Assembly: GCA_965219385.1 (NCBI GenBank)
Contig: CBDCNM010000002.1
Location: forward strand, 1,482,936-1,546,935
Direction of reading: 5' to 3'
DNA: 64,000 nt
Source: Candidatus Latescibacterota bacterium
GTDB lineage: Bacteria > Latescibacterota > UBA2968 > UBA8231
Positions 46,629 to 64,000 of the stretch are shown piece after piece. The notes under the pieces were generated by a model. That model was not told the DNA's origin, did no database searches, and worked only from the letters and a program-made list of their open reading frames with translations. Each line of letters begins with the position of its first letter. The stretch's first letter is position 1. A program made the translations under genes and the position numbers.

Positions 46629-46730
46629 GGCGTTTCCCGCTGCTCTTGCGATGGAACCGGTTCTCCACGTCCAGGGCGTATTCCTCCCCCAAGATCTACT
46701 ATAAGCGCTAAAATCGAACCGGAACGCCAA

Positions 46731-46857
46731 GTTTCAATACCCCAGTAGTCGGGTAAGCCTTCCTGATAGAACAGTAAGCGAGTTTATTACGAGCGAGAGC
46801 GGCTTTGTGTCGCATGTTAAGTTTCAATACCCCAGTAGTCGGGTAAGCCTTCCTGAT
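46731..46857 (-). CRISPR. Array 2, distal part: two 37-bp variant repeats (46731-46767, 46821-46857) and a 53-bp spacer
   Basis: GTTTCAATACCCCAGTAGTCGGGTAAGCCTTCCTGAT (T27G relative to the main array). Confidence 0.9.
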
Positions 46858-47219
46858 CTGACGCGTCCGGCCAGGGATTGGGCGACGGCTTCTTGCAGAC
46901 GCAACCGGTGACTGCCGGTGAGGATGTACTGCCCGCGTTGCTGGCTGCTGTCAGCGAAGACCTGGATGGTTGAGAGCAGCTCGGGTACGCGCTGAATTTC
47001 GTCGATAATAACGGGCGGAGGAAATTGCGAGAAGAAAGCGTGGGGATCGCTTATCGCCAGCCTGCGTACATCGGGTGCTTCCAAGTTCGCATAAACGTGG
47101 TTGGGAAACTGCATACGCGCCAACGTGGTTTTTCCCGCCTGCCGCGGACCGATGATTGTCACCACGGGAAATTCGGTTGCCGTCGCCGCCAATTCTCTGG
47201 CAATTTGTCGTAAAATCAC
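46858..47219 (-). pseudogene. AAA_14/DUF4143-type ATPase, 5' portion truncated at a CRISPR repeat
   Basis: GPRQAGKTT, IIDEIQRVPEL, ILTGS, QSLAGRV, then repeat sequence. Confidence 0.85.
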
Positions 47220-47268
47220 GGTTCTGATCTCTACTCGCGTTGATGCCGTTCAAGGACAAGATAAGAAA

Positions 47269-47309
47269 ATTGGTACAGATTTCAAATTAAACTTTAAATC
47301 TGTACCAAT
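47269..47309. repeat. 14-bp perfect inverted repeat (REP-like hairpin)
   Basis: ATTGGTACAGATTT-13 nt-AAATCTGTACCAAT. Confidence 0.8.
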
Positions 47310-47322
47310 CTCAGACCTACCC

Positions 47323-47351
47323 TTGACATCATATGTTGTCAAAGACATATT
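47323..47351 (+). promoter_or_regulatory. Sigma70-type promoter with overlapping operator palindromes for the TA operon
   Basis: TTGACA-17 nt-CATATT just upstream of ATG 47358; TTGACA..TGTCAA and ATATGT..ACATAT dyads. Confidence 0.6.
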
Positions 47352-47357
47352 TCTCAC

Positions 47358-47715
47358 ATGAGCTGGACAGTCGAAATCGCCGACGAGTTTGAGCCGGAAT
47401 TCGACAGTCTGCATGAGGACGTGCAAACCGAGATCCTAGCGCTGTTGCGGCAGTTCGGGCCGCAACTAGGACGGCCCCGAGTAGACACGCTGAACGGCTC
47501 CCGGCATGCGAACATGAAGGAGATGCGGTTCAGTGCTGCGGATGGATGGGGAATGGCGGCTAGCGTTTGCCTTCGATCCGGCGCGCAAGGCCGTCCTGCT
47601 CGTCGCAGGCGACAAGTCTGGAGTCAACGCCAGATGGTTCTACCATGCGCTCATCCGCAAGGCCGACGAGCGATTCGACCGGCATTTAGCCTCGCTCGCG
47701 AAGGAAGGAGATTAA
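47358..47715 (+). pseudogene. RelE/HigB-like (Gp49-type) toxin, frameshifted
   Basis: GPQLGRPRVDTLNGSRHANMKEMRF / EWRLAFAFDPARKAVLLVAGDK split by a GATG duplication at 47541-47548. Confidence 0.85.
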
Positions 47716-48044
47716 TGATGGCTTTGAACGTGGAAGACAAGATTGCGACGCTGGATCCCGCTCGGCGACGCAAGGTCGAGGATCGGGCGGCAGAACTCAT
47801 TGCTGAGGAGATGACCCTGCGCGAACTGCGCAAGGCCCGGCAGCTCACCCAGGCGCGCGTCGCGCACCAACTCGGTATCTCGCAGGATGGCGTCTCGCGG
47901 CTCGAGCAACGAAGCGATCTGTTGCTCTCAACGTTGCGCAAGACGGTGGAGGCCATGGGCGGCAGCCTTTCGCTCATCGCCAGATTTCCCGACCGTCCGC
48001 CGGTCGAGCTGTCAGGCATTGCCGACGGCGATCCCCGCGATTGA
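47715..48044 (+). CDS. XRE-HTH antitoxin
   Basis: LRELRKARQLTQ..VSRLEQRSDLLLSTLR..AMGGSL; AGGAG RBS; TAATG coupling. Confidence 0.88.
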   Translation: MMALNVEDKIATLDPARRRKVEDRAAELIAEEMTLRELRKARQLTQARVAHQLGISQDGVSRLEQRSDLLLSTLRKTVEAMGGSLSLIARFPDRPPVELSGIADGDPRD

Positions 48045-48072
48045 CGCCCGAGGTGACGTGAACTCCGCTCGC

Positions 48073-48492
48073 ATGGGTATTAAGGCGCTGACTGTCGATG
48101 TCTTTGGCACGGTCACCGACTGGTACTCTACCATTGTGCGAGAGGGTGAGCGATTAGGCTGCGACAAGGGGATTACCGTGGACTGGGCACGCTTTGCCAC
48201 GGCTTGGCGCGGTGGCTATGAGCCCGCTATGGGTCGCGTGCGGAGTGGCGAATTGCCTTGGATGAAGCTTGCGCGGCATTACAAGCCGGACAGGGAAGTT
48301 TACGAGAAGGCGGCGCATCTTCTCGATTTGGAGCCGCCTTCAATCCTGATGGTCGCGGCGCATCGCCACGACTTGGAGGGAGCTAGAGCCGTTGGATTCA
48401 GAACGGCCTTTATTCCACGTCCGCTTGAATGGGGACCGGAAGGCCAAGCAGACACCGCGCAAGACGGAGATTTTGACATAATTGCGCAAGAC
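48073..48492 (+). pseudogene. Haloacid dehalogenase type II with a large in-frame internal deletion
   Basis: DVFGTVTDW...ELPWMKL joined directly to ARHYKPD..MVAAH; central region missing compared with the HAD at 23442. Confidence 0.7.
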
Positions 48493-48602
48493 GACAATCT
48501 GTACGGCCTAACTCAATATAAACCAAATATAAACAAATATGCAAGATGCAACGGAGTACAACCAGGACGCGCTCGCATATGGCGTCGAGGAGCGTTGAGA
48601 TC

Positions 48603-48962
48603 ATGAGCGACCGGAGTTTACAATCGGGCTACTACAGCACAATCACTTACCTCGCCGAGCTTCTGGATGAAGCCTTGGTGCAACTCAAGCTCGCGCGAGG
48701 TGGCGCACCCTCGTCAGAAATCGAAAAGGTCGCCAAGATGTTGGAAGCAGCGGCTAGCGAGGAGCGCCGCGATCTCTCGACTGCATTCCTGCGCTTGATC
48801 CTTCGGGATGAGCTAGGAGAACAACAGCAGGCTTGGCAAGAACTAAGCGTGCGACTTGGGAAGGGAGAGTGCGACGAGCGTGACGTGGAGACGATGGAGC
48901 AGATCGCTGAAGTCGTGGACACAGAGCGGGCATCAGCGTTTCGCAAAATGAGAGGGTACTAG
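48603..48962 (+). CDS. Hypothetical helical protein
   Basis: GAGGAG RBS; coupled to the next ORF. Confidence 0.55.
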   Translation: MSDRSLQSGYYSTITYLAELLDEALVQLKLARGGAPSSEIEKVAKMLEAAASEERRDLSTAFLRLILRDELGEQQQAWQELSVRLGKGECDERDVETMEQIAEVVDTERASAFRKMRGY

Positions 48963-49614
48963 GTGTTCGAGGAGTATATCGATGGAACTCTCGGCGAGCT
49001 GGAACGACGGGCGCTCGTCCTGCGGGCAAAGATTCCGCGAGACCTGCCGCCCTACTATGCCACACTTGTACAGGCGTGCAACGAGCGGCTTGATAGACTA
49101 CTGTCTGTCCTCCGCGACCTGCGCGATAACCCTGAGTGGCAGGATGAGAAACACGTGACGATCCGATCATCGAGCCCTTGCAGGACAGGATGTTGGAGTC
49201 GGCGGCGGTGGCGATGGAACACTTCCACACGCTGGCCGCGCGAAAGGGAAGGTGGTCGTGCTCCAGAGCAAGAGCGAGCTCGGCTGCGGACGTGGGAATC
49301 CTACTGGGGCAAGTATTGGATCTTAGAGTTCTACTGCGACCTGTTCGCCATCTACACCCTCGGGCCAGCCTTCGCGTGGTCGCATGTGCATCTGAGTGCC
49401 AAGCGGGGCGTGAACCCGTACGACTATTTGATGGAGCAACATCCGGCTGACAGGAGTTAAAGAGATCGGATGCCGCATCGCACACGCTGAGTGCAACGAC
49501 GAAATCCATACGCTCCTGAACGAGGCTTGGCAACGGTTCTGGGACAACCCGAGAGAGTACGCCGCCTCGGAGGATCAGAAGACGAAGGAACTGGGCGCGG
49601 CTGGAAACAACTGA
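48963..49614 (+). pseudogene. Eroded hypothetical protein, possibly zincin-like
   Basis: WILEFYCDLFA..LGPAFAW segment among broken frames; no HExxH motif seen. Confidence 0.35.
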
Positions 49615-49781
49615 GCCCAGAACCGGCACCTTCGCATCCTCGATTTGGAGCCACTTTCCCTCACGCTCAAAACACCCTAGTTGGATGGAAGAGCCATCTT
49701 CTGTTTTCGCCCCTAGAGAATACTAGAGAAGCTAGCGGCGCTGGTCCCCAAACCCGGTTCCATCTCCTTTCATATTGATCG

Positions 49782-49901
49782 GTTTCAATACCCAGTAGTC
49801 GGGTAAGCCTTCCTGATAGGATTGTCATGCTACTCCATTTTCGTAGCACCGTGCGCTAAAATGGGTTTCAATACCCCAATAGTCGGGTAAGCCTTCCTGA
49901 T
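49782..49901 (-). CRISPR. Array 2, leader-proximal part: two variant repeats (49782-49817, 49865-49901) and a 47-bp spacer
   Basis: Same T27G variant; one repeat lacks a C, the other has G15A. Confidence 0.9.
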
Positions 49902-50130
49902 GTGGGGAGGATCGTTTTTTTCATAGCTATTTAACCACGACCATTTTACGACTCAGGTTGACTGAACCGGCCCGTAGTTGATAAATGTATATCCCACTGG
50001 CGACCTTTTCTCCCCTTTGGTCTTTGCCATCCCAAACAGCCGCCTCGTTTAGGTTTAAATAGGGGCCTGCTTCACGAAACCCTAAGTCTAATTTTCGGGT
50101 TAAAGCGCCTCTTACATCATAGATATTTAG
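49902..50130 (-). promoter_or_regulatory. Putative leader of array 2
   Basis: AT-richer non-coding DNA; CGACTCAGG after a 47-nt gap from the repeat, as in the main leader. Confidence 0.6.
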
Positions 50131-52228: not shown

Positions 52229-52357
52229 TGTCTAACACTCCAATCGTTTGTTGTGTGTAGAATATAAAGAATATATTCATCTCCATCAAACTCTCGTATA
52301 TAGTTATAGCAGAGACATTTAGTCGGATTTCTTAGGTTTGGCAACGTGAGGTTTCCT

Positions 52358-53770
52358 GTGACCCTGTTTACTATATTCGAAAAGTTTCCAGATCAACAAT
52401 CCTGCATTGACCACCTGGAGTCGATTCGCTGGCCCGATCATGCTAGCTGTCCTTCCTGCAAAAGCCTCAGAGTAGCCCGCAAGAAGGACAGGGATCTCTT
52501 GGGCCGTTGGAATTGTCATAACTGCCGATCCTCTTTTACTGTCCTCTCTGGCACAATCTTCTCCGGTACTAAAATTCCTCTTCAGAAATGGTTCCTCGCC
52601 ATTGTTCTGATGTCCGATTCCAAGAAATCATTGTCGAGTTACCAGCTAGCTAGACACCTGGATATGAACCAGAAGTCAGCCTACAATATCCAGCAGAAAA
52701 TCCGTCAAGCTATGAAGGGCGAGGAGTCCGAGCTTTTGGAGGGTATTGTCGAAGCCGATGAAACTTAGAGGCCCTAACAAAACTCTTTGAGGTACTTCCA
52801 ACAGATGAGAATACATCCGATGTCGAGAAAGGCTTCATGGAGATCACCTCGTCGCTCCCAGCGGACTCGAAGCCGACGGAATTGGTGCAACCATGCCAAC
52901 GTTCGTTCCACCACCCACCGATAGACGCCCAAGCCGCTGCCGTGGGCTTGCCCTCGCCGAGCCAACACCGAGCCGATGCCCCGCTTACGCAAGGCGCGCC
53001 GATGGGCTTGCGAATCATAGGCCCGATCCCCTTGCACCCGATCCGGCCGACGACGCGGGCGGCCGACCCGACCGGCCACCGGGGGTATGCGATCCACCAA
53101 CGGCAACAGCTGCGTCACATCATGCCGATGGGCCCCCGTCACCCCCGCCGCCAACGGCACCCCTTGGGCATCGGTGATTACATGGTGTTTGCTACCGGGT
53201 TTGCCGCGGTCCGTCGGATTGGGACCGGTGTGCGCCCCCCCCCAACCGCCCGCACCGAGGCACTATCGACCACCGCACGAGACCAATCAATCCGGTCGGC
53301 GGCCCTCAGTCGGTTCAACAGGATATGATGGACTCTTTTCCAGACCCCGGCTTGTTGCCAAGCGTGCAGGCGACGCCAACAGGTCATCCCCGAACCGCAC
53401 CCCATCTCTTGAGGCAAATACTCCCAAGGGATACCCGTCTTGAGCACAAAGAGAATGCCGGTCAGCACCCTACGGTTATCCAGCCGAGGCCGCCCCCCTT
53501 GGGGGCCAACGGTTACGGGGGGCAAAACCGGTTCAATCAAGGCCCATAACCCATCGTCGAGTAACGGCTTGGCCATCAAAAACACCTCCATATCAAGACG
53601 GTAGAAGCAATACCGAAGAGGATAAGAATATAATGAAGCCTATACGCGATTCCAAGGTTTTGTTAGAGACTCTTATATAGGTGGGAAGCCTCGGAACAAG
53701 AATAAGAACAATAAAGGTGGACCTGTCGGTAAGATTTCGGTGGTTGGGGCAGTTCAACGGGATGGCAAAG
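52358..53770 (+). pseudogene. IS1595-family transposase, interrupted by IS5 and truncated
   Basis: Zn ribbon CPSC..CHNC, GTIFSGTKIPLQKWF; VEADET|YIGGK is restored when the IS5 is removed. Confidence 0.88.
52768..53672 (-). mobile_element. Complete IS5-family element (905 bp) with TTA target duplication
   Basis: Terminal IRs GAGGCCCTAACAAAAC / GAGTCTCTAACAAAAC; TTA at 52765-52767 and 53673-53675; two transposase ORFs meeting at a G9 run (53235-53243). Confidence 0.93.
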
Positions 53771-53992: not shown

Positions 53993-54102
53993 TTTGTATT
54001 GAGATTGGTTAGTAGGCTGTAACTGCCACGCTTTGAGCGAGTCAAGGAACTTGTCCCGATCTTTCGGTCTTAGGTAGTGGCAGTTACGGCTCTTTTGTTA
54101 TG

Positions 54103-55995
54103 ACCCCAGTAGTCGGGTAATCCTTCCTGATGAAAAGGCTTGCAAAATCGCCAAGGAACAGAAGGAAGGCAGGTTTCAATACCCCAGTAGTCGGGTAATC
54201 CTTCCTGATGCACGTCAAATTCCAGTTTTGCACGGGCGGCCCTGAGTTTCAATACCCCAGTAGTCGGGTAATCCTTCCTGATCTGTCTCGCCCCGCACCC
54301 ACAAGCGCCGCTCCGCCTGGTTTCAATACCCCAGTAGTCGGGTAATCCTTCCTGATGCACAATGAAAATCAAAATCATCCACGACCACGACAAGTTTCAA
54401 TACCCCAGTAGTCGGGTAATCCTTCCTGATCTGTCTCGCCCCGCACCCACAAGCGCCGCTCCGCCTGGTTTCAATACCCCAGTAGTCGGGTAATCCTTCC
54501 TGATGCACAATGAAAATCAAAATCATCCACGACCACGACAAGTTTCAATACCCCAGTAGTCGGGTAATCCTTCCTGATCTGTCTCGCCCCGCACCCACAA
54601 GCGCCGCTCCGCCTGGTTTCAATACCCCAGTAGTCGGGTAATCCTTCCTGATCAGCTACACAAGAGTGCAAGATGTAATACCGATCCCCTGGTTTCAATA
54701 CCCCAGTAGTCGGGTAATCCTTCCTGATCGAGAAAAATCGTCTTTGCCGCCAAGGATTTAATTGTTTCAATACCCCAGTAGTCGGGTAATCCTTCCTGAT
54801 CCAGATGAAAAGATTCTATCAACTATATACTGATAAGTTTCAATACCCCAGTAGTCGGGTAATCCTTCCTGATGAGATATAGACAATGACACGACGACAT
54901 ATGGACTACACGTTTCAATACCCCAGTAGTCGGGTAATCCTTCCTGATGCACAGAATCGGCTCATTCATGCTCTGGGTTCTCTCTCGTTTCAATACCCCA
55001 GTAGTCGGGTAATCCTTCCTGATAAGATATCCAGGACGAACAACCTGGAACTACCCGTCAAGTTTCAATACCCCAGTAGTCGGGTAATCCTTCCTGATAT
55101 GGGCATTATGTCCGACAACAACCGGTCTCGTACGAGTTTCAATACCCCAGTAGTCGGGTAATCCTTCCTGATATGGGGACTGCATCTACTGCGGATTCCC
55201 GCTCGATAAGTTTCAATACCCCAGTAGTCGGGTAATCCTTCCTGATCCAATAAAGTAGCCCTCCACGAGCGGGCAGGGTTGAAGGTTTCAATACCCCAGT
55301 AGTCGGGTAATCCTTCCTGATGGGAGCAGTCAAGGAACAGCGAAAAGCACGCGTGCAAGCCCGTTTCAATACCCCAGTAGTCGGGTAATCCTTCCTGATA
55401 AGACGCGTAGCGGGTATTACCGCGTGTTGGAGGACGGTTTCAATACCCCAGTAGTCGGGTAATCCTTCCTGATGAGCTACAAACATCTTCACTGAAGCGA
55501 CCGCCTGCACGTTTCAATACCCCAGTAGTCGGGTAATCCTTCCTGATTTTCAAAACTTGTAATGATGCTAAATTGTGGATACGAGTTTCAATACCCCAGT
55601 AGTCGGGTAATCCTTCCTGATAATCTACCGAGAAACAACAACGGCTATTGGCGCAATTAGTTTCAATACCCCAGTAGTCGGGTAATCCTTCCTGATCTGG
55701 TCGACCCGTACGAACTGTTCAGCCAGGAGGAGCGTTTCAATACCCCAGTAGTCGGGTAATCCTTCCTGATTGGACGCGAACGCCGCTCAGTCGGCACAGC
55801 TGAAAGAGTTTCAATACCCCAGTAGTCGGGTAATCCTTCCTGATATGCGAACCCTGACCACAAGAGAAATTTTACCCCTCATGTTTCAATACCCCAGTAG
55901 TCGGGTAATCCTTCCTGATTTGAGCCGGCAGGTGCCGGATTGGGCTCCGATCGAATATGTTTCAATACCCCAGTAGTCGGGTAATCCTTCCTGAT
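54103..55995 (-). CRISPR. Main CRISPR array: 25 full 37-bp repeats plus 1 truncated, 25 spacers of 35-41 bp (22 unique)
   Basis: Minus-strand repeat ATCAGGAAGGATTACCCGACTACTGGGGTATTGAAAC (TACCC/GGGTA stem, 3' ATTGAAAC); degenerate repeat at the left (trailer) end. Confidence 0.98.
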
Positions 55996-56297
55996 CCCGC
56001 CCGTGTTATTTCCTGTCTCGCAGGCAATTGCAAGGCGGTTCTCGACTCAGGCCATTTTGACAGATAAAACGCTTCCAAAAATAAAAACCTGCACTGAAGC
56101 ACCTGTTCATAATGCTCACTCCTGCAAAGGGTTAGAAATTTGCGACCCACCAGAACATGACAAAATACATCTAATCCTCACGCGCGCTGTTCGATACAAG
56201 CTCAAACTGCCAGTATGGCATTACCAGACGCTTATGGGTCGCATCCACCTGTCTGAGCCTGCCTGTGACCTGGCAAACAGGTGGCCACATAGTCAGA
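55996..56297 (-). promoter_or_regulatory. CRISPR leader
   Basis: Non-coding DNA between cas2 and the first repeat. Confidence 0.75.
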
Positions 56298-56579
56298 TCA
56301 AACAATCACATAGTCCTCGTGTTTCGGTACGGGATGTTCGCATTCGGAAATCCCTTCAATCCGCTTCTTACATGCGGCACACAGGTGATAATAACACACC
56401 CGATCGTCTTCGGGATCAATCAATTCTGATAGCTTGGATCGCAGCTCAACAAAGTGCCGCTCCTGCAACTCGCATTCAAAAACGCTCTTCTGCCGCCGCG
56501 ACCCATAATCCTCCATCAACTTCATCACCCGCCGCAATCTGCGCTTGTCTGCAATATCGTAGGCCACAACCACGAACAT
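56298..56579 (-). CDS. cas2: CRISPR-associated endonuclease Cas2
   Basis: VVAYDIADKRRL..YGSRRQKSVFEC. Confidence 0.96.
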   Translation of the reverse strand: MFVVVAYDIADKRRLRRVMKLMEDYGSRRQKSVFECELQERHFVELRSKLSELIDPEDDRVCYYHLCAACKKRIEGISECEHPVPKHEDYVIV

Positions 56580-56683
56580 CGCTCTCAGCTCCGGACGCTA
56601 AACCTGAGCAGGGTTTTCTGAATTGGCAGGATTTGCAGGCTGAAAAAACCTTCAGTCTCCACCCTACCAGCCCCTAATCCCAA

Positions 56684-57685
56684 TCATCGAATTAGAAACG
56701 GCAGATACGCGGCCTCCTCACCACGCAACATGCGAATCAGTCGCCGTGCCTGCAATTCAAAACATTGGCGATAGGGAATCTTTTGCACCTGCCCGTCGTG
56801 CCCCAGATATTGAACCACGACAGCCACCCGGTCCTGATAGGCGCGAATCAATCGCCGGCGCCCGTCGTCACACACAAACACACCCCCATCGCGCTGTTCA
56901 AAATCCTCTGTTTTCATCTGCCCATGATTCAACAAATCCAGCACCATTGCATCCACAATCACCGGTCGAAATTCCTCCATCACATCCAGCGCAAGCGACG
57001 GCCGCCCGTAATCTACAAGGTGCAGATAACCGATATAGGGATCCAATCCCACGCGCAAAACAGCCGATTCCAGGTCGGAAGACAGAAGCGTATAACCAAA
57101 GCTCAACATGGCATTGACGGGGTCTTTGGGCGGGCGCCGCGTGCGTTTGACAAACGGAAACGCGTCGGGCAAAAACCGACCCAGCGCATCGAAATATGTC
57201 GCTGTAGCCGCGCCTTCAACCCCGCGCAACGCATGGGCATCTTCAATGCGATCCACCTGTCTTAAAAGCGAGCGCAATCGATGCGCGGTTTGTGCAACAT
57301 CCTGGTTTCGCCGTCGGGCAAGGCGCATCACAAGCGTGCGCATATTGCGAATTTTGCCCGACACAAACCCACGCGCAGCACCCAGTCGAAAACCTTCGTC
57401 CTCATACCGCCGATATTGGATCTGCCGAAGAATCACATTGCGACCCTCCGGCCCAATCAACCGACCGCGATAACTCCCCGTGGCGCTCAGCAACACGAGA
57501 TCAATGCCCTGCATCAGAGCCGCATTCATCGCCGCGGGCGTAATCCCGATATTGCCAAACAAAACCACCTGATCCAGGTCAAACACAGGCAATGCCTGGA
57601 GCTTCTTCTTGCCCTTCCACACGGCCAAACGCTGTCCTTCCCGCCGCACCTGAGCACCGGGTTCGGTCACATAGAGCACGGCCAC
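56684..57685 (-). CDS. cas1: CRISPR-associated integrase Cas1
   Basis: RGVEG, RRPPKDPVNAMLSFGY, GLDPYIGYLH, LALDVMEEFRP; AGGAGG RBS before GTG. Confidence 0.97.
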   Translation of the reverse strand: MAVLYVTEPGAQVRREGQRLAVWKGKKKLQALPVFDLDQVVLFGNIGITPAAMNAALMQGIDLVLLSATGSYRGRLIGPEGRNVILRQIQYRRYEDEGFRLGAARGFVSGKIRNMRTLVMRLARRRNQDVAQTAHRLRSLLRQVDRIEDAHALRGVEGAATATYFDALGRFLPDAFPFVKRTRRPPKDPVNAMLSFGYTLLSSDLESAVLRVGLDPYIGYLHLVDYGRPSLALDVMEEFRPVIVDAMVLDLLNHGQMKTEDFEQRDGGVFVCDDGRRRLIRAYQDRVAVVVQYLGHDGQVQKIPYRQCFELQARRLIRMLRGEEAAYLPFLIR

Positions 57686-57754
57686 ATCACACCTCCTGAA
57701 CACCCGGGAAGGCGAGCGTCTCCCTCGCCTGGCCCTTGGTCCCCATAAAAAATC

Positions 57755-59677
57755 TCAATACACGACCTCCTCAACACCAACCTGCAACCGCCCCTCTCCA
57801 TCTGCTGTCACAACCCAAACACCGGTGGATATTTTACCCTTGCGATCGCGCAACAAGTCGCGCACCACATCTTCTGCCTGCGCCAAGTCGGTCATAACTT
57901 GCGCAGCTTTCCGACGCAGGGAAACATACCGGTCCACAGCCTCGCCATTGTGCGGTCGATCCGCTCGTCCCATACCTGCCGTAAACGACGCATCAATATG
58001 CAGCACAGGGGAGGGATACCCCCCTTCGGGCAAATCAAACTCGCAGGCGCATGGCACGGTTTCAACGAGGTCGGGCAAATGGCTGCGAATTTTGGGACAT
58101 CCTATGGGATGCGAAGGCAACCGCCCGATATGGTAATCTGTCACCTCGGCCTTGTAATCTGCGCAGGCGCCAATCACCGCATGCAAAAAAGCGCGCCCCC
58201 GTTCGCCAACATGCCCAAACACACACTTCAAAACATGGCGCTCAATATGTGCAAGATGCGCCGTTGCAAAGGCTTTCTCTGTGAGCGCGCGAATAACCGC
58301 GCACCCCTGCAAAACCGGTTGAAACTCTGGAAACTGCTTTTCCAGATCGGCCTTCTCCAGCGGGGTAGCGGTATGGTCATCCTGTCCGACCAGACGAGAA
58401 ACCGCATGGTCAAACCCATGGACATCAACGGGTTTGGCATCGCGTAAAACGCCGCCTTGATCTGCGACAGCACGCCCTTCCGGATCGACAAACAAAGCCC
58501 GCCGCCCGGTCTTGCGATGCACCCCCAGAGGCAGCTTGATCAAATTGCCCAGTTCATCTTCACCAACGGCATCCTGCTTGGGAAAAAGCTCCCACTGCAA
58601 TTCCTCTGACGACGGCCCAAACCGCTTTACAAACGCACGACCAAATTTGCGAAGGTCACCCGCCCGCACAGTGCTCTGAAAAAATAGCCATACATGCGCC
58701 CCCTTGTGCCCGCTGTCTTCCACATACACCGGGAGATTGAGCGACGCAAACCCCGCACAAACCCGCCGCATGTCTTTGCACACTTGCGCCCGCAACGCAT
58801 CCATCAAAGCGTCATTTTGCTGCGCCTTGTGGAGTGCCTCTTTTTTTATGTCGATATCCAGTGCCAAAAATTGTGCTTTATCCCCTTCAAAAACGGGATA
58901 CACGCCAACCGTTGCATCCCCCCGAAGGTGGGATTGGATCACATCCACGGTCAGGGCTTCACGAACCGGTACATAGCCCGCCTTACCGTCATCATCGATC
59001 CATTGGCGTGCATAAACGTCTTCTCGACCAGCAAACAAGGCCAACATCCGCGCTGCAACATCCGATTGGCTTTCGACTTCTACACCCGGAAACGCCTCGG
59101 ACGATTTCAACTGCGCCGACACCAACTGCCTTCCCGCCAGCGCACCCGCATGGTCTGGCACGAGATCGAGCACCCGGCCATACAACTCCTGCGCCAGACC
59201 CATCATACCGTCCTCTTCGTAGAGCCGCGCCAGTTCAAATATCCCATCAACGTGATCTGCTTGATGCTGAATGAGCTTCTGCAGAAGCGACTGGGCCAGG
59301 CCGTTTTCATTTCGCTCAACCTGCAACATCGCCAGACCAAACAGAGACTTTGCATCATAAGGACACTGTGCCAGGTACGCCTGATAGATTTCAACGGCGG
59401 CCTGAACATTATTCAGCTCTTCTGCCAGCGCACCCCAATTGGCAAACGCATCATCCACCGGCAAATCGCGCCACCGATCGAGCAGAGCATGTGCCCTGTC
59501 CTGCTCGCCTCGGATCAGCGCCACGCGCACCATCAACTGATGCGCCCGATTGCAGCCCGGATCACGCGCACTCGCTTCCGAGGCCAATGCCTCCACACCA
59601 TCCACGTCGTTTTGCTCCAAAAGCACCTGCGCCTTTTCACACAGGGTATCAACAAGAGAAACAGCAGAGGTCGCCAT
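57755..59677 (-). CDS. CRISPR-associated primase-polymerase (TPR + AEP + PriL-C-like domain)
   Basis: N-terminal TPRs; FAGREDVYARQW, LDID, DSGHKGAHVW, LGNLIKLPLG; Cys-rich C-terminus; directly upstream of cas1. Confidence 0.9.
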   Translation of the reverse strand: MATSAVSLVDTLCEKAQVLLEQNDVDGVEALASEASARDPGCNRAHQLMVRVALIRGEQDRAHALLDRWRDLPVDDAFANWGALAEELNNVQAAVEIYQAYLAQCPYDAKSLFGLAMLQVERNENGLAQSLLQKLIQHQADHVDGIFELARLYEEDGMMGLAQELYGRVLDLVPDHAGALAGRQLVSAQLKSSEAFPGVEVESQSDVAARMLALFAGREDVYARQWIDDDGKAGYVPVREALTVDVIQSHLRGDATVGVYPVFEGDKAQFLALDIDIKKEALHKAQQNDALMDALRAQVCKDMRRVCAGFASLNLPVYVEDSGHKGAHVWLFFQSTVRAGDLRKFGRAFVKRFGPSSEELQWELFPKQDAVGEDELGNLIKLPLGVHRKTGRRALFVDPEGRAVADQGGVLRDAKPVDVHGFDHAVSRLVGQDDHTATPLEKADLEKQFPEFQPVLQGCAVIRALTEKAFATAHLAHIERHVLKCVFGHVGERGRAFLHAVIGACADYKAEVTDYHIGRLPSHPIGCPKIRSHLPDLVETVPCACEFDLPEGGYPSPVLHIDASFTAGMGRADRPHNGEAVDRYVSLRRKAAQVMTDLAQAEDVVRDLLRDRKGKISTGVWVVTADGEGRLQVGVEEVVY

Positions 59678-59734
59678 AAGGGGAGACTCCTTTCTTTCAG
59701 GTCTGGGTGCGGTGACGTACAGGGTGGGCATGGG

Positions 59735-61036
59735 TTAGCTCTGGGAAAAGTCCAACGAGCGGGCTACCGTCAGCCGCTCGCCAGTCTTTGGATCGTCCTC
59801 TTTCAGCAGGCGTTCGAGATCGGCTATAACCTTGCGTAAAGGGGTTGCTTCCGGCGGTGCCATGGCCGTGAAGCCGTGGGTTAGAATGCTGTCGTTGCGT
59901 CTGCTGGTCTGCGACTCGCTGTGTCTATCGAATTGGATCAATTGGTCAGCGAGTGGATCACCAAGATATTCCAGCAGCTTAACGGCCTGATAGCGGGATG
60001 CCTGTAATTTTCCCTTTTTTCCGTCTGTGATGAAGGAGAGAGCCTTAATCGCCGCGTCGTTTGGCGGCAAGTCGGCGCTGTTGTAGCCTTGGTCAAATAG
60101 CCGGATCTGCCCGATCAGTTCGAGCACCCGATAGGCGCGTATCAGGGCGTCCTCGAAGTGCTGGTCTCGCAGACGCCGCTCCGCATTGGCCAACAGATCG
60201 CAGACCAGCGCCCGCAGATGTGCGGCCATCGCCGCATGGCCAGACCGATCAGGATTAAGCCTCTGGTCTAGTCGGCGGAGCCACTTACTCATTTCTGGGG
60301 TTGGTGCAAATCTGCCCGCTTCTTTCGCCAGCGCCCCGCGCCGGTCCAACGCCTCAACGGCTGCTTTATAGTCGAGCCGATCCCAAGCGACGTAGATGTA
60401 CGCCGCTGAACGCAGGGCTTCGGCCTGTACACGGAATTGCTCTGAAAATAATCCGGCGAAAGGTCCATCCAGGTGGGGCAATAGTTCGATCACAGCACCG
60501 AAGTCGCCGTGGCCCATGAGACGTTCGGCTTGGTCGAGGCGTCGGCGTTCAGTAACAAGGTTGGTCCTTATCTGGCCGACCTTTTCGGTGCCGGGAATCA
60601 CCATGCCGCGCTCGTCGCGCTGCCCGCTATGGACGTAGCGCAAGACCGGGATGTCGCGGCCAAGCGCCGCCAGTACCAAGGCGGCACTCATGGCCTTGGT
60701 GCCGCGAGTGAAATCCACTACGATGTCGCTTGGCTTGAAGCCGTCGTCAATGAGCCGGGCGAGCACCGAATCAAAATGCCCGAAACAGGCGTCCGCGTTA
60801 TTCTCCTGCCCTGACGCCGGCAGTGCATCAATCTCGACGGTGGGGTTGGAGATGCGCTCCTGCAAGGTTTGGGCAAACTCCTCAGTCTCGCGCGACGGCA
60901 ACAAGACGATTCGGTCCCATTCGCCGTCTTCGACGCTTTTGAGCATCGGAACAAGCAGAGTCCGTTCGATGTCATCAATGTTGCCGGTACCAACAGTGAG
61001 GACCAGGGCTTTTTTGCTACTAGGGTGAGTGGTCAT
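59735..61036 (-). CDS. CARF-domain protein with HEPN-like motif (TIGR02710-like)
   Basis: LVLTVGTG, VDFTRGTKAMSAAL, DLLANAERR, RAYRVLE, RNDSILTHG (RxxxxxxH-type). Confidence 0.85.
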   Translation of the reverse strand: MTTHPSSKKALVLTVGTGNIDDIERTLLVPMLKSVEDGEWDRIVLLPSRETEEFAQTLQERISNPTVEIDALPASGQENNADACFGHFDSVLARLIDDGFKPSDIVVDFTRGTKAMSAALVLAALGRDIPVLRYVHSGQRDERGMVIPGTEKVGQIRTNLVTERRRLDQAERLMGHGDFGAVIELLPHLDGPFAGLFSEQFRVQAEALRSAAYIYVAWDRLDYKAAVEALDRRGALAKEAGRFAPTPEMSKWLRRLDQRLNPDRSGHAAMAAHLRALVCDLLANAERRLRDQHFEDALIRAYRVLELIGQIRLFDQGYNSADLPPNDAAIKALSFITDGKKGKLQASRYQAVKLLEYLGDPLADQLIQFDRHSESQTSRRNDSILTHGFTAMAPPEATPLRKVIADLERLLKEDDPKTGERLTVARSLDFSQS

Positions 61037-61586
61037 CAGTAGTAGACCTAGGTATTCCTACCTTTTCACCGCTTTTGCGAACCAGAGCCACCAAGGCGGC
61101 ATCGACGATACCAGCCAGGCCGCTTTTGTCATCATAGTCGATCACCTGTTTGAGTTCTAGGCGTAGTGGCAAGTCCCCTTTTGTTAATTCCAATTCTGCC
61201 AGCGGCAGCCAAATCTCCGCCCCGCGATCTTCTACCAACTTTATCCATGGCGGCGGCCCGGGTTCCACCTGGGTCCCCCACAGGGCATGATGCTCCGTCA
61301 GAGTATCGGTCAATTTTTGCAATTCCAGCCTACGGCCCTGCCAAGTTCCGCCCCAATGAGACCAGACATGCCATTCGCCGTCCTCGCCGAATAAACGAAG
61401 GTCGCTGACCCGTGCCCAATCCGGTTGCACATCTGGAGGCCAGCAGATTTTGTCCGACTGAACCACGCCAAAACCGATAAAGCCGGGTTCCTGTAATAAG
61501 ATCCACGCTGTCTCGTTCGTGGTTACATAGGGCAAGTGTGAACAGACCAATTCTTCATTAAGTTCTTCATGCGTTTTCTTAGACAT
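61020..61586 (-). CDS. csx19: Type III-D subunit Csx19
   Basis: DLRLFGEDGEWHVW, LWGT; position after the double-RAMP gene. Confidence 0.8.
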   Translation of the reverse strand: MSKKTHEELNEELVCSHLPYVTTNETAWILLQEPGFIGFGVVQSDKICWPPDVQPDWARVSDLRLFGEDGEWHVWSHWGGTWQGRRLELQKLTDTLTEHHALWGTQVEPGPPPWIKLVEDRGAEIWLPLAELELTKGDLPLRLELKQVIDYDDKSGLAGIVDAALVALVRKSGEKVGIPRSTTDDHSP

Positions 61587-61599
61587 CTGCGATCCTCTC

Positions 61600-63063
61600 T
61601 TATTTTTTAGGTCGCCGTGAACCTTTGGGGCGACCAGGAGATTCCTGGGCCTTCTCGACACAACATTCGAGGAATGAGTCTTCACCATCTACAAGCGTCA
61701 TGCTGTTATTAACATGTGAAAATTCCCAAACCTTAACATCTGGCGAGGTAGAACATTTTAATTGAAATAAGGCTCTGAAACCCTCGAAAGTACCGCGACC
61801 ATTGCTCGTTTCTCCACCCAGGGCGGCATGCCCATTCCAGAAGTCGCGCAGGGTCAAGAACAACAAGCCAATTTCTTCGTCCTCGGGTTCCTCCAGTTTC
61901 AATATCAACCGGAGATGTGGCATTGGTTTTTTCAAGTCCTTGAGGCAGATTGGAAAAATCGGTTTTTCGTTAAACAAGGCACTCTGCAAACTGCCCCCGG
62001 TAAATCGATCAATAGCAACGCGATCCTGCCACCGTGGTTCCACATTCTTCACCAACTTTTCCTCAATCCATACCCGGCTTGCCCACAAACCTTGCGGATC
62101 TTTGGCTTCTTGTTCATGGACAGGGCCGAATATTTCACTCACTGCGTCCTCAGACCAGCCAATGGTGGTTGCGATCAGAGAAGCGCGATGCCGGAATGCA
62201 CCGGCAAAGGATGTGCCGGGGACGACAGGCTCTCCAGCGGAGTGCAGATGAACCATGTCTGGAGCTTCTGGATCAGAAGGTGAACTACGGATTAACAGGG
62301 ATGTACGCAGGATGAAATCCGCTTCAAGGCGAAAGTATTGTCGTTGATCAGATGGCAATGGATGTGGCGTCGAATTACTCGCGGGACGAGACCAGACCGA
62401 GCCACGTAGCCACGCCATGACATCCTCTGGATCGTTCATCTGCAAATCGCGTATCTCCCAGGACGCTACCTTGCCGCGACCATAGCCCCGGCGGGTTCGT
62501 GCGCCCAGTCGGATATCGCCTGTTTTGAACCCATGTAAGAGAGCTAAGAACAACTTCCCTAATTCATTATTATCGTCTCCGTCTCCCTTACGAATAATGC
62601 ACTCCAGATCCAACTTAAATTCAGTCCCGCGTTCGACAACTTCCACGTCGAATTTTGCCTTTGCAGCGGCAGAACCCGATTGGGTGTCCACACGCACGCC
62701 ATCGCGGATTGATGTCCATGCTTGCTCGCTGGCACAGGCAGCATCGGCAACGATTAAGGCACTCATGGTATCCTTTTCATCCGCTCCGCCGAAAAGCCGT
62801 TTGAGCACCTGGCCCTCATCCCCCTCTTGGTATTCCGCCCAGGGCAAACTCTGCCGGGCCAGAAAACTCCGCGCCGCTCCAGCGATGGATGCACCCGGAA
62901 TAAAGGGCTGTCCATCCGCATCCTTCAGAAGGCACATATCCGCTATACCTGTTTCGTCTCCCCCAAAGTGCGCCACACTGTCCAGCTCCCACTTACCCCG
63001 AGCATACAAACGGCGCACAATGGCATCCTTAGCTTCAGATGTTTCTGTCTTCGTATTTGCCAT
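61600..63063 (-). CDS. csm3: Type III-D double Cas7 (Csm3-group RAMP x2)
   Basis: Two RAMP domains: IPGASIAG..LFG..LGARTRRGYG and VPGTSFAG..IFG..IDRFTGG..LGGETSNGRG. Confidence 0.9.
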   Translation of the reverse strand: MANTKTETSEAKDAIVRRLYARGKWELDSVAHFGGDETGIADMCLLKDADGQPFIPGASIAGAARSFLARQSLPWAEYQEGDEGQVLKRLFGGADEKDTMSALIVADAACASEQAWTSIRDGVRVDTQSGSAAAKAKFDVEVVERGTEFKLDLECIIRKGDGDDNNELGKLFLALLHGFKTGDIRLGARTRRGYGRGKVASWEIRDLQMNDPEDVMAWLRGSVWSRPASNSTPHPLPSDQRQYFRLEADFILRTSLLIRSSPSDPEAPDMVHLHSAGEPVVPGTSFAGAFRHRASLIATTIGWSEDAVSEIFGPVHEQEAKDPQGLWASRVWIEEKLVKNVEPRWQDRVAIDRFTGGSLQSALFNEKPIFPICLKDLKKPMPHLRLILKLEEPEDEEIGLLFLTLRDFWNGHAALGGETSNGRGTFEGFRALFQLKCSTSPDVKVWEFSHVNNSMTLVDGEDSFLECCVEKAQESPGRPKGSRRPKK

Positions 63064-63074
63064 GCTATTAGTCC

Positions 63075-63717
63075 TTATTTATCCCTTGACTTACGGCGCA
63101 GTGCTGTAAGTAGATGATCGAGAAATACTGTACACATCTTCGCGCTGTCATCCGAGACCAGTTTGTCAATCATGGTTTGGCGCATATCGGCGTAGCGACC
63201 TTCGACAAGCTCTTCAACGCGACTTTCAATCAATTGCCGAGTTAAGGACTCTGGTTCAGTCCATGCCTTTTTGAACAAATTGCACAGTGTCATTTGGCGC
63301 GACAGTCCGGGGATGTCGGCGTTTATCCGACAGTTCATCAATCCTTCCTCTGCCGGCTTACGTAAGTTATTTAAGCTCTCAACAGGCGCATCTTGTTGGA
63401 GAAACAGACGTAGCCGGCCGAGAAGGGCATTGCTTGGAACGTTCTGCGTCCGCTCAGCGCAGGTCATGGCACGCTGTTGCATCTCAGCCAAGCAACGCGA
63501 TCGTACAACGCCATACAGCAGGTCTTGGACACTCTGTGGTATCTTCGAGTCTGGCGCGCTGGGTATATTTTTCTCATCCAGTTGGATTTCTTCCCACAAC
63601 TGAAGATTGCCCTGTCGATTGACTGCAATGCGGCCATACCCCTCTTCCTTGCGTAACCCTAGGCCATCGTGCTCCAATTGCAAGAGATGCTTCTGATCGA
63701 GAGCTTTATCAGCCTTA
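63075..63717 (-). pseudogene. csx10: 3' part of a Csx10-like (Cas5 plus Cas11-like) type III-D gene, interrupted by IS5
   Basis: G-loop GLGLRKEEGYGRI followed by a helical C-terminus; the frame stays open up to the IS end. Confidence 0.75.
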
Positions 63718-64000
63718 GAGTCTCTAACAAAACCTTGGAATCGCGTATAGGCTTCATTATATTCTTATCCTCTTCGGTATTGCTTCTACCGTCTTGATAT
63801 GGAGGTGTTTTTGATGGCCAAGCCGTTACTCGACGATGGGTTATGGGCCTTGATTGAACCGGTTTTGCCCCCCGTAACCGTTGGCCCCCAAGGGGGGCGG
63901 CCTCGGCTGGATAACCGTAGGGTGCTGACCGGCATTCTCTTTGTGCTCAAGACGGGTATCCCTTGGGAGTATTTGCCTCAAGAGATGGGGTGCGGTTCGG
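63718..64000 (+). mobile_element. Second copy of the IS5 element (left end; runs off the window)
   Basis: TTA then GAGTCTCTAACAAAAC; matches the reverse complement of 53390-53672. Confidence 0.93.

Follow-up and report, generated by a model that had tools for sequence, protein, structure and literature searches.

How a 2,924-bp block of genes came to occupy a spacer position in a CRISPR array, and what the two short spacers on either side of it recognise, are the questions raised by positions 46,731 to 49,901 of a 64,000-nt stretch of a Candidatus Latescibacterota genome (contig CBDCNM010000002.1, assembly GCA_965219385.1), here called the window. The host genome (G000) comprises 5.81 Mb in two contigs. 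With roughly even confidence, from sequence, we read this four-repeat mini-array as a secondary array of the neighbouring type III-D system, in which an eroded block stands together with defused spacers against self or kin that would at most knock down peptide mRNAs. The mini-array is made up as follows, in window coordinates.

46731..46767, minus strand: repeat R1, T27G variant, of full length, with the predicted hairpin and the 3' handle preserved
46768..46820, minus strand: spacer S53, 53 nt
46821..46857, minus strand: repeat R2, T27G, without a leader of its own
49782..49817, minus strand: repeat R3, T27G, 36 nt (one C lost), hairpin still predicted
49818..49864, minus strand: spacer S47, 47 nt
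49865..49901, minus strand: repeat R4, T27G plus one further change
49902..49960, minus strand: leader-like end

The array lies on the minus strand with its leader at the right, so that the gaps from the leader side measure 47, 2924 and 53 bp. These coordinates bear out the arrangement leader-R-47-R-2924-R-53-R given in the preliminary description, as well as its statements that the T27G variant is absent from the main array (four of four repeats here, 0 of 26 there) and that the distal pair has no leader of its own, the only leader being at the right. Folding predicted that the hairpin and 3' handle are retained in all four variant repeats, and the repeats that border the block, R3 and R2, are both full and point the same way, R3 lacking one base. 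Among the 132 genomes of the class that were searched, the G variant was confined to G000 and one other genome had a single C variant; looked up letter for letter, the variant repeat had 0 matches in genome_contigs and 0 in metagenome_contigs, collections from which near relatives may be missing. The last bases of R4 together with the beginning of the leader (49892-49910) form a terminator-like hairpin on the plus strand, and an identical 10-mer occurs to the left of R1 (46706-46715) and at the leader-side end of S47 (49853-49862).

S53, S47 and the first 19 leader nucleotides all match a single region of about 120 nt, which covers the upstream part, the ribosome binding site (RBS) and the first ~22 codons of a family of cysteine-rich (Cys-rich) peptide genes; the matches of the short spacers to host peptide genes had been overlooked. 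The leader piece matches the upstream region at 18/19 positions. The CRISPR RNA (crRNA) of S53 would be antisense to about codons 7-22, and its best 30-nt match was 27/30 (copy D, C2:4113351); 12 shuffles scored 21-22, and of the 22 distinct main-array spacers 21 scored 21-24. Against copy D positions 1-7 were almost unpaired, followed by 40/46 paired positions, and against all four copies five to six of positions 1-7 were unpaired and pairing began at position 8. The crRNA of S47 would be antisense to the RBS, the start codon and codons 1-10 of a second peptide allele group, with positions 1-9 not gene-derived. The first 38 nt of S47 directly precede S53-like sequence in contigs of the sequencing runs X19, X21 and X23, those of X21 and X23 also carrying the leader piece, which gives one gene start with both S47 and S53 parts, and protein P0003 starts with the ten residues encoded by S47. 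The two spacers correspond to two allele groups among 11 aligned peptides. These alignments indicate that S53 and S47 are antisense to the starts of Cys-rich peptide genes of the host lineage.

The 5' extensions of both spacers matched none of the 11 aligned alleles, and that of S47 would introduce an in-frame stop. This 9-nt extension is an 8/9 inverted copy of an inner stretch, as was seen in 2 of 351 ordinary spacers, which is only a hint of fold-back synthesis by the CRISPR-associated primase-polymerase (CAPP) encoded nearby. Among 351 ordinary spacers from relatives, 3 attained a length of 47 nt and 0 a length of 53 nt. Folding of the spacers gave a hairpin z of -1.3 to -1.9 for S47 and none for S53, and a metagenome search with the S53-core motif returned 2 matches, both unrelated.

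The peptides combine a conserved N-terminal leader, which we take to be a pilin-like motif, with a hydrophobic segment and a variable Cys-rich tail. The family was found in 28 of 75 genomes of the host's family, often in multiple copies, and therefore belongs to the host lineage; within the class it occurred in 34/132 genomes, 33 of these among the 131 others. Seven copies are present in G000, three intact, one start-less and three without the first 39 or more codons, so that the 5' end is lost in 4/7. Copy A lies between two thioredoxin-like genes with an A24 prepilin peptidase one gene further, and at L024:8568-13242, L025 and L027 a multi-copy Cys-rich peptide cluster was observed with thioredoxin-like genes, a prepilin peptidase and tandem secreted-protein paralogs. 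No Pfam family matched the peptide, and an Atlas match at 0.86 is a lead only. Alignment against genome_contigs returned one weak unrelated locus, and a DNA search with the peptide 5' region gave a match at E<=0.05 in 28 of the 132 genomes, strong only in G000.

The block itself contains the following.

46858..46862, no strand: 5-nt filler without homology to relatives' ATPase
46863..47219, minus strand: 5' third of an AAA_14 ATPase gene (a relative's open frame is ~400 aa)
47358..47715, plus strand: Gp49/RelE-like toxin pseudogene with a 9-nt loss and a 4-nt gain relative to homologous contigs
47718..48044, plus strand: HTH antitoxin, with an 85% identical paralog at C2:810734-811146
48073..48492, plus strand: HAD hydrolase remnant with an internal deletion and a paralog on C1
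48606..49600, plus strand: two hypothetical genes without a family, the second frameshifted; right limit approximate
49625..49768, plus strand: internal piece of an IS91-type (Y2) transposase, decayed
49766..49781, minus strand: 16-nt relic of the post-repeat sequence of genome G080

The toxin-antitoxin (TA) module, HAD remnant, hypothetical genes and ATPase fragment had been recognised previously and were found again, while the earlier statement that no transposase is present gives way to the frameshifted IS91-type fragment at 49625-49768. This fragment was 74-78% like three further copies in the genome and 76% like a homologous open reading frame (ORF) in locus L020 that matches Pfam Y2_Tnp (PF04986), and the Y2 transposase survives here as a 144-nt relic only. 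The toxin, the HAD gene and the second hypothetical gene are broken, the last without 179 nt that a contig of run X1 has at 49451. The hypothetical genes matched no Pfam, NCBIfam or PADLOC family, and their Atlas matches were all <0.9. The promoter region of the ATPase fragment faces R2-S53-R1, and a promoter scan was near chance (4 vs 2.2 +/- 1.4). Intact IS91-type elements end in oriIS and terIS. No such ends lie at the ends of the block, where the relic breaks off within its coding sequence, 13 nt short of R3.

Source homology does not run flush to the repeats at either end. The ATPase of three relatives, at 87% identity, ceases to match at 46863, 5 nt before R2, as do the homologous contigs of X21 and X23, which moves the ATPase breakpoint off the repeat edge where the preliminary description had placed it. 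At the other end the IS91-type relic stops 13 nt before R3. The 16 nt adjoining R3 were 14/16 identical to the post-repeat sequence of G080, a genome of another family than the host, compared with 10/16 for the next best among 416 post-repeat sequences and 9-11/16 for seven other flanks tested; in G080 a 614-bp DUF6883-DUF4926 cassette, situated between two repeats, begins with the matching stretch. By this alignment the 16 nt are inherited repeat-adjacent sequence, and the R3 junction would thus be older than the present content of the block. A loose end of an X21 contig at 49766 was considered as another allele and rejected, its 30 letters being G080 sequence and the source a G080-like species. 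No relative had more than one block piece contiguous; X1 had several, unjoined in the contigs listed. Around 7 homologs of the ATPase or TA genes, no repeats lay nearer than 1.5 kb. From its composition the block is an eroding mosaic of relics and not one fresh fragment. It may go back to accessory genes lodged between repeats, as the toxin-antitoxin cassettes at array ends in this clade are, a region that was eroded, overwritten by island DNA (the IS91-type relic, TA module and ATPase) and reduced by deletions, in an order of events that we infer.

Misassembly at the repeats had been raised previously as a caveat. Public contigs from 4 of 24 listed runs were compared with the locus, with a bridge requiring 31 letters per side; the listing came from a search for DNA, 0 of the 24 runs being recorded as RNA, and X19 is possibly the source sample. 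The block/R3 junction was bridged with 0 differences by an X19 contig (49268-52700) and an X21 contig (49452-49819), from runs of two studies. The identical R2/ATPase junction occurred in both runs in contigs that begin at 46828, with 30 letters in the repeat, one below the rule. The whole unit was spanned in none of the contigs listed, which would leave room for misassembly, and no contig joint skipping the block was present in the 4 runs. With the genome in only two contigs besides, misassembly is unlikely, and as an explanation of the whole locus we give it hardly any credence.

A reading closer to the original proposal is that a single long fragment was inserted between R3 and R2 by Cas1-Cas2, alone or together with CAPP, and that later decay blurred its ends, the block then being the second of three spacers. 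The single leader and the one variant common to four repeats, as duplication of a repeat at integration would give, agree with this, as do the unmatched bases of S47 and S53 at the end where the block has 13 and the inserts of 1,167 bp (between perfect repeats) and 648 bp in genome G038, which has the same repeat. Set against it are ends off by 5 and 13 nt, an R3-side 16 nt common to a genome of another family, the mosaic content including the IS91-type relic, and an X1 contig that joins 46709 to 47065, that is, part of the ATPase to the left flank, with R1-S53-R2 absent. An ancestral long insert is possible, but it would differ from what the block contains today. We regard this reading as improbable. 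Given the displaced ends, the inherited R3 flank, the mosaic content and the X1 joint, we find no support for the view that Cas1-Cas2 captured the present 2,924 bp in a single step, and the mosaic content, eroded genes and off-repeat breakpoints fit the erosion that had been offered as an alternative better than capture. The idea of a kilobase spacer or captured gene is thus unsupported for the present block as a single event and supported for the repeat clade, as described below.

For the short spacers, the account that we favour runs as follows. Cas1-Cas2 would have taken pieces from one hot spot of ~120 nt at the 5' end of secreted Cys-rich peptide genes, the host's own or those of close kin, and Cas6 would release two crRNAs from the mini-array. 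The effector complex would bind the peptide mRNAs at their RBS and opening codons, where Cas7 would cut them. In type III-B and III-A systems pairing at spacer nucleotides 1-7 is needed for synthesis of cyclic oligoadenylate (cOA) and not for binding or RNA cleavage (PMC8376896, PMC9704408). With positions 1-7 or 1-9 unpaired, Cas10 would make no cOA and the CARF nucleases would stay off, so that a burst of self or kin acquisition would have survived only in defused form. The guides may be silent today because csx10, a gene of the III-D operon, is interrupted by a copy of an IS5-type insertion sequence (IS) starting near 63717. Pointing to defused self-targeting are targets without their 5' ends, an IS inside csx10, the missing unit in X1 and a variant repeat that none of the 131 other genomes has. 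Several observations weigh against this account. The activating-region rule derives from III-A and III-B and is applied here to III-D. The leader assignment depends on one 9-mer (49949-49957), at the same offset as a main-leader 9-mer (56043-56051), and alignment of the whole mini-array leader with the main leader was at chance level (score 49 vs 48 +/- 9). The best own-genome peptide match of S47 is the start-less copy C (21/22 at positions 10-31), the intact copies A, B and D pair with S47 at only 28-29/47, and genome-wide S47 was within chance, its best match in G000 (23/30) lying at another locus. The best-matching S47 allele is not in the G000 assembly, so that the target may be kin and not self. 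Finally, truncated peptide copies are not comparable across genomes, as the profile requires a 5' end.

The same features could belong to a purposeful regulator, in which two single-spacer units were selected as an RNAi-like control of the peptide family, with one guide per allele group, 5' extensions that switch off cOA signalling, and a block that is irrelevant filler or supplies a promoter for R2-S53-R1. It would account for three pieces drawn from one ~120-nt region, for two spacers that match the two allele groups and are both antisense over the RBS and start with unpaired 5' ends, for repeats that keep hairpin and handle as the intervening genes decay, and for spacer lengths rare among relatives. 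Yet the variant repeat occurs in 0/131 other genomes of the class, though 33 of these have peptide genes, one X1 contig lacks R1-S53-R2, and csx10 is split by IS5. The adjacent junk DNA is, besides, conserved as well as the array among X19, X21 and X23, so the conservation of the array shows no selection. We consider a regulator doubtful. Its fuller form, a natural III-D 'RNAi' circuit in which 5'-extended guides would cut the host's own hypervariable peptide mRNAs without cOA, within a gene-uptake clade of CAPP-Cas1-Cas2 modules, appears to us, on the sequences, likewise doubtful.

Twenty CAPP loci were fetched and an array was found de novo in 14. Where CAPP was 73-77% identical to that of G000, five of seven loci (the fifth being L129/L099) had gene-bearing gaps >500 bp, most of them TA-type cassettes at the array end. 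TA or DUF6883/DUF4926 cassettes lay between repeats in G072, G035, G038, G034, G080 and G074, and two gaps in relatives, read from translations, were an IS and a group II intron. Next to distant CAPPs (29-45%) lay eight arrays, and among their 268 spacers, as far as the flanks were fetched, 0 gaps >55 bp occurred; further out, the G032 array has a 4.6-kb gap flanked by ISs. The long inserts for which a survey of other CAPP loci had been suggested are present beside the closest CAPPs and absent from the fetched flanks of the distant ones; CAPP alone does not predict them, and the part it had been given in their capture is not supported. These comparisons support the view that blocks bearing genes occupy spacer positions in the arrays of this CAPP-Cas1-Cas2 clade.

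The best candidates for true kilobase spacers in the clade are the inserts of G038, which has the same repeat with CAPP 75% and Cas1 82% identical. The insert of 1,167 bp (L090:14617-15783) has a perfect repeat on each side; 26 ordinary spacers precede it and 5 follow. Its start is the RBS of a dockerin-domain gene, and its last part encodes residues 1-175 of a phage portal protein, a fragment 97% identical to the 382-aa P0019 up to the last codon before the repeat, giving a flush 3' end. The second insert, 648 bp (L090:16205-16852), holds one whole paralog and likewise starts at the RBS of a dockerin-domain gene; both are in the sense direction of the array. The assembly comprises 430 contigs, and the insert joins are given as assembled. 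No phage source of these inserts was found in viral_contigs or PHROGs. Arrays of this clade would take up gene-sized DNA and may express it, as the RBS starts and sense orientation in G038 suggest.

In four genomes (G072, G034, G074 and G080; L095, L099, L100 and L102) the stop codon of a DUF4926 gene is flush with a CRISPR repeat, and the DUF4926 genes at repeats follow different upstream genes (VapBC-like, DUF6883), which has an integron-like look. As in integron cassette arrays, whole genes fill the inter-repeat space in relatives, with stop codons at the repeat edge. In contrast to integrons, the repeats here are CRISPR repeats whose hairpin is of the Cas6 type, the ORFs listed beside the locus included no integron integrase, and in the window no gene ends flush with a repeat. 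At L088, L105 and L106 a conserved element of 181-185 bp lies between two repeats directly upstream of the CAPP gene and is perhaps a repeat-flanked promoter. The 376 spacers of relatives gave 0 matches to G000 at E<=1e-4.

The main array and the type III-D genes occupy the right part of the window.

54095..55995, minus strand: main array, 26 repeats, spacers of 35-41 nt
56298..59731, minus strand: cas2, cas1 and CAPP (NF040561)
59735..63683, minus strand: CARF-HEPN, csx19, csx7 and the 3' part of csx10 (type III-D operon)

The operon also encodes a TIGR03986 RAMP protein, a CARF-PD-D/ExK protein and a CARF-sigma54 activator, and is followed by CAPP, cas1, cas2, the leader and the array. Its Cas10 lacks the HD domain and has a GGDD motif, and together with Csx10, Csx19, Csx7/Cas7 and the TIGR03986 RAMP this places the system in type III-D, with CARF-HEPN and CARF-PD-D/ExK as the encoded CARF effectors. 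A fusion of an NE0113-type CARF domain to a sigma-54 activator heads the type III operon in both G000 and G038 (L021:17342-19027 and L090:1981-3642) and is possibly a cOA-responsive transcription factor. No reverse transcriptase (RT) gene was beside those G000 cas1 genes that were listed. The IS5 copy in csx10 (63717-64000) has >20 near-identical copies genome-wide, and another IS5-type element is nested in an IS1595 fragment (52346-53674). The main repeat family was found in 14/21 genomes of a genus of another family (g19) and in 0/75 genomes of the host's own, and CAPP and Cas1 were 73-77% and 82-85% identical to those of g19; on this distribution the CRISPR locus was probably imported into the host lineage. 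The newest main-array spacer (55920-55958) is identical to the host's own chromosome at 39/39 positions (L023:5576-5614), with no extension. The matched site lies upstream of pspA, and the crRNA has the same sense as pspA. Near the main-array trailer (54246-54615) two spacers alternate in three and two copies.

CreR guides have a target next to a protospacer adjacent motif (PAM) and repress by DNA binding. Mini-arrays of the CreR/crlRNA kind have their target in the cas promoter (bioRxiv 10.1101/2023.03.03.530964), whereas the best matches here are 5' ends of peptide genes far from the cas locus, and the position is not conserved, the variant repeat occurring in 0/131 other class genomes and the left unit being absent from X1. 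In the same source, type III mini-arrays are reported in 10-14% of loci, without detected targets, and are called likely degraded (Shmakov et al., bioRxiv 10.1101/2023.03.03.530964). The present array resembles them in being short and near a type III main array, with variant repeats and a partial own-genome match, and differs in having an identifiable target, the mRNA 5' end of a non-cas gene family and not a cas promoter. The work on the Cas10-activating region used engineered III-B and III-A targets (PMC8376896, PMC9704408); S53 and S47 show the mismatch pattern at nucleotides 1-7 against own genes, in what would be a natural III-D case. For CAPP-Cas1-Cas2 modules, prespacer synthesis and gap filling have been proposed (PMC8211822), and a CAPP-TPR gene adjoins cas1-cas2 in a type III locus there as here; long inserts go unmentioned in the excerpt of that source, and the long gaps here follow one repeat clade and not CAPP. 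Spacers can derive from genomes of related or neighbouring prokaryotes (PMC12612501), which fits the best S47 allele lying outside the G000 assembly but leaves unexplained the three pieces from one ~120-nt region and the unpaired 5' ends. Literature searches with narrow phrases found no long or kilobase spacers, and none of the papers listed on type III self-regulation describes this case, judged by titles and abstract openings.

The mismatches of the two guides lie where RNA cleavage and the toxic cOA alarm would separate, and regulation of host genes by a type III system becomes testable with two defined guides. The clade also offers a defined set of Cas1-Cas2, with or without CAPP, and a repeat with which the integration of long fragments can be studied, G038 being the clean example. 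Even as mere defused accidents, the spacers would leave the locus a record of clustered self-acquisition and the escape from it.

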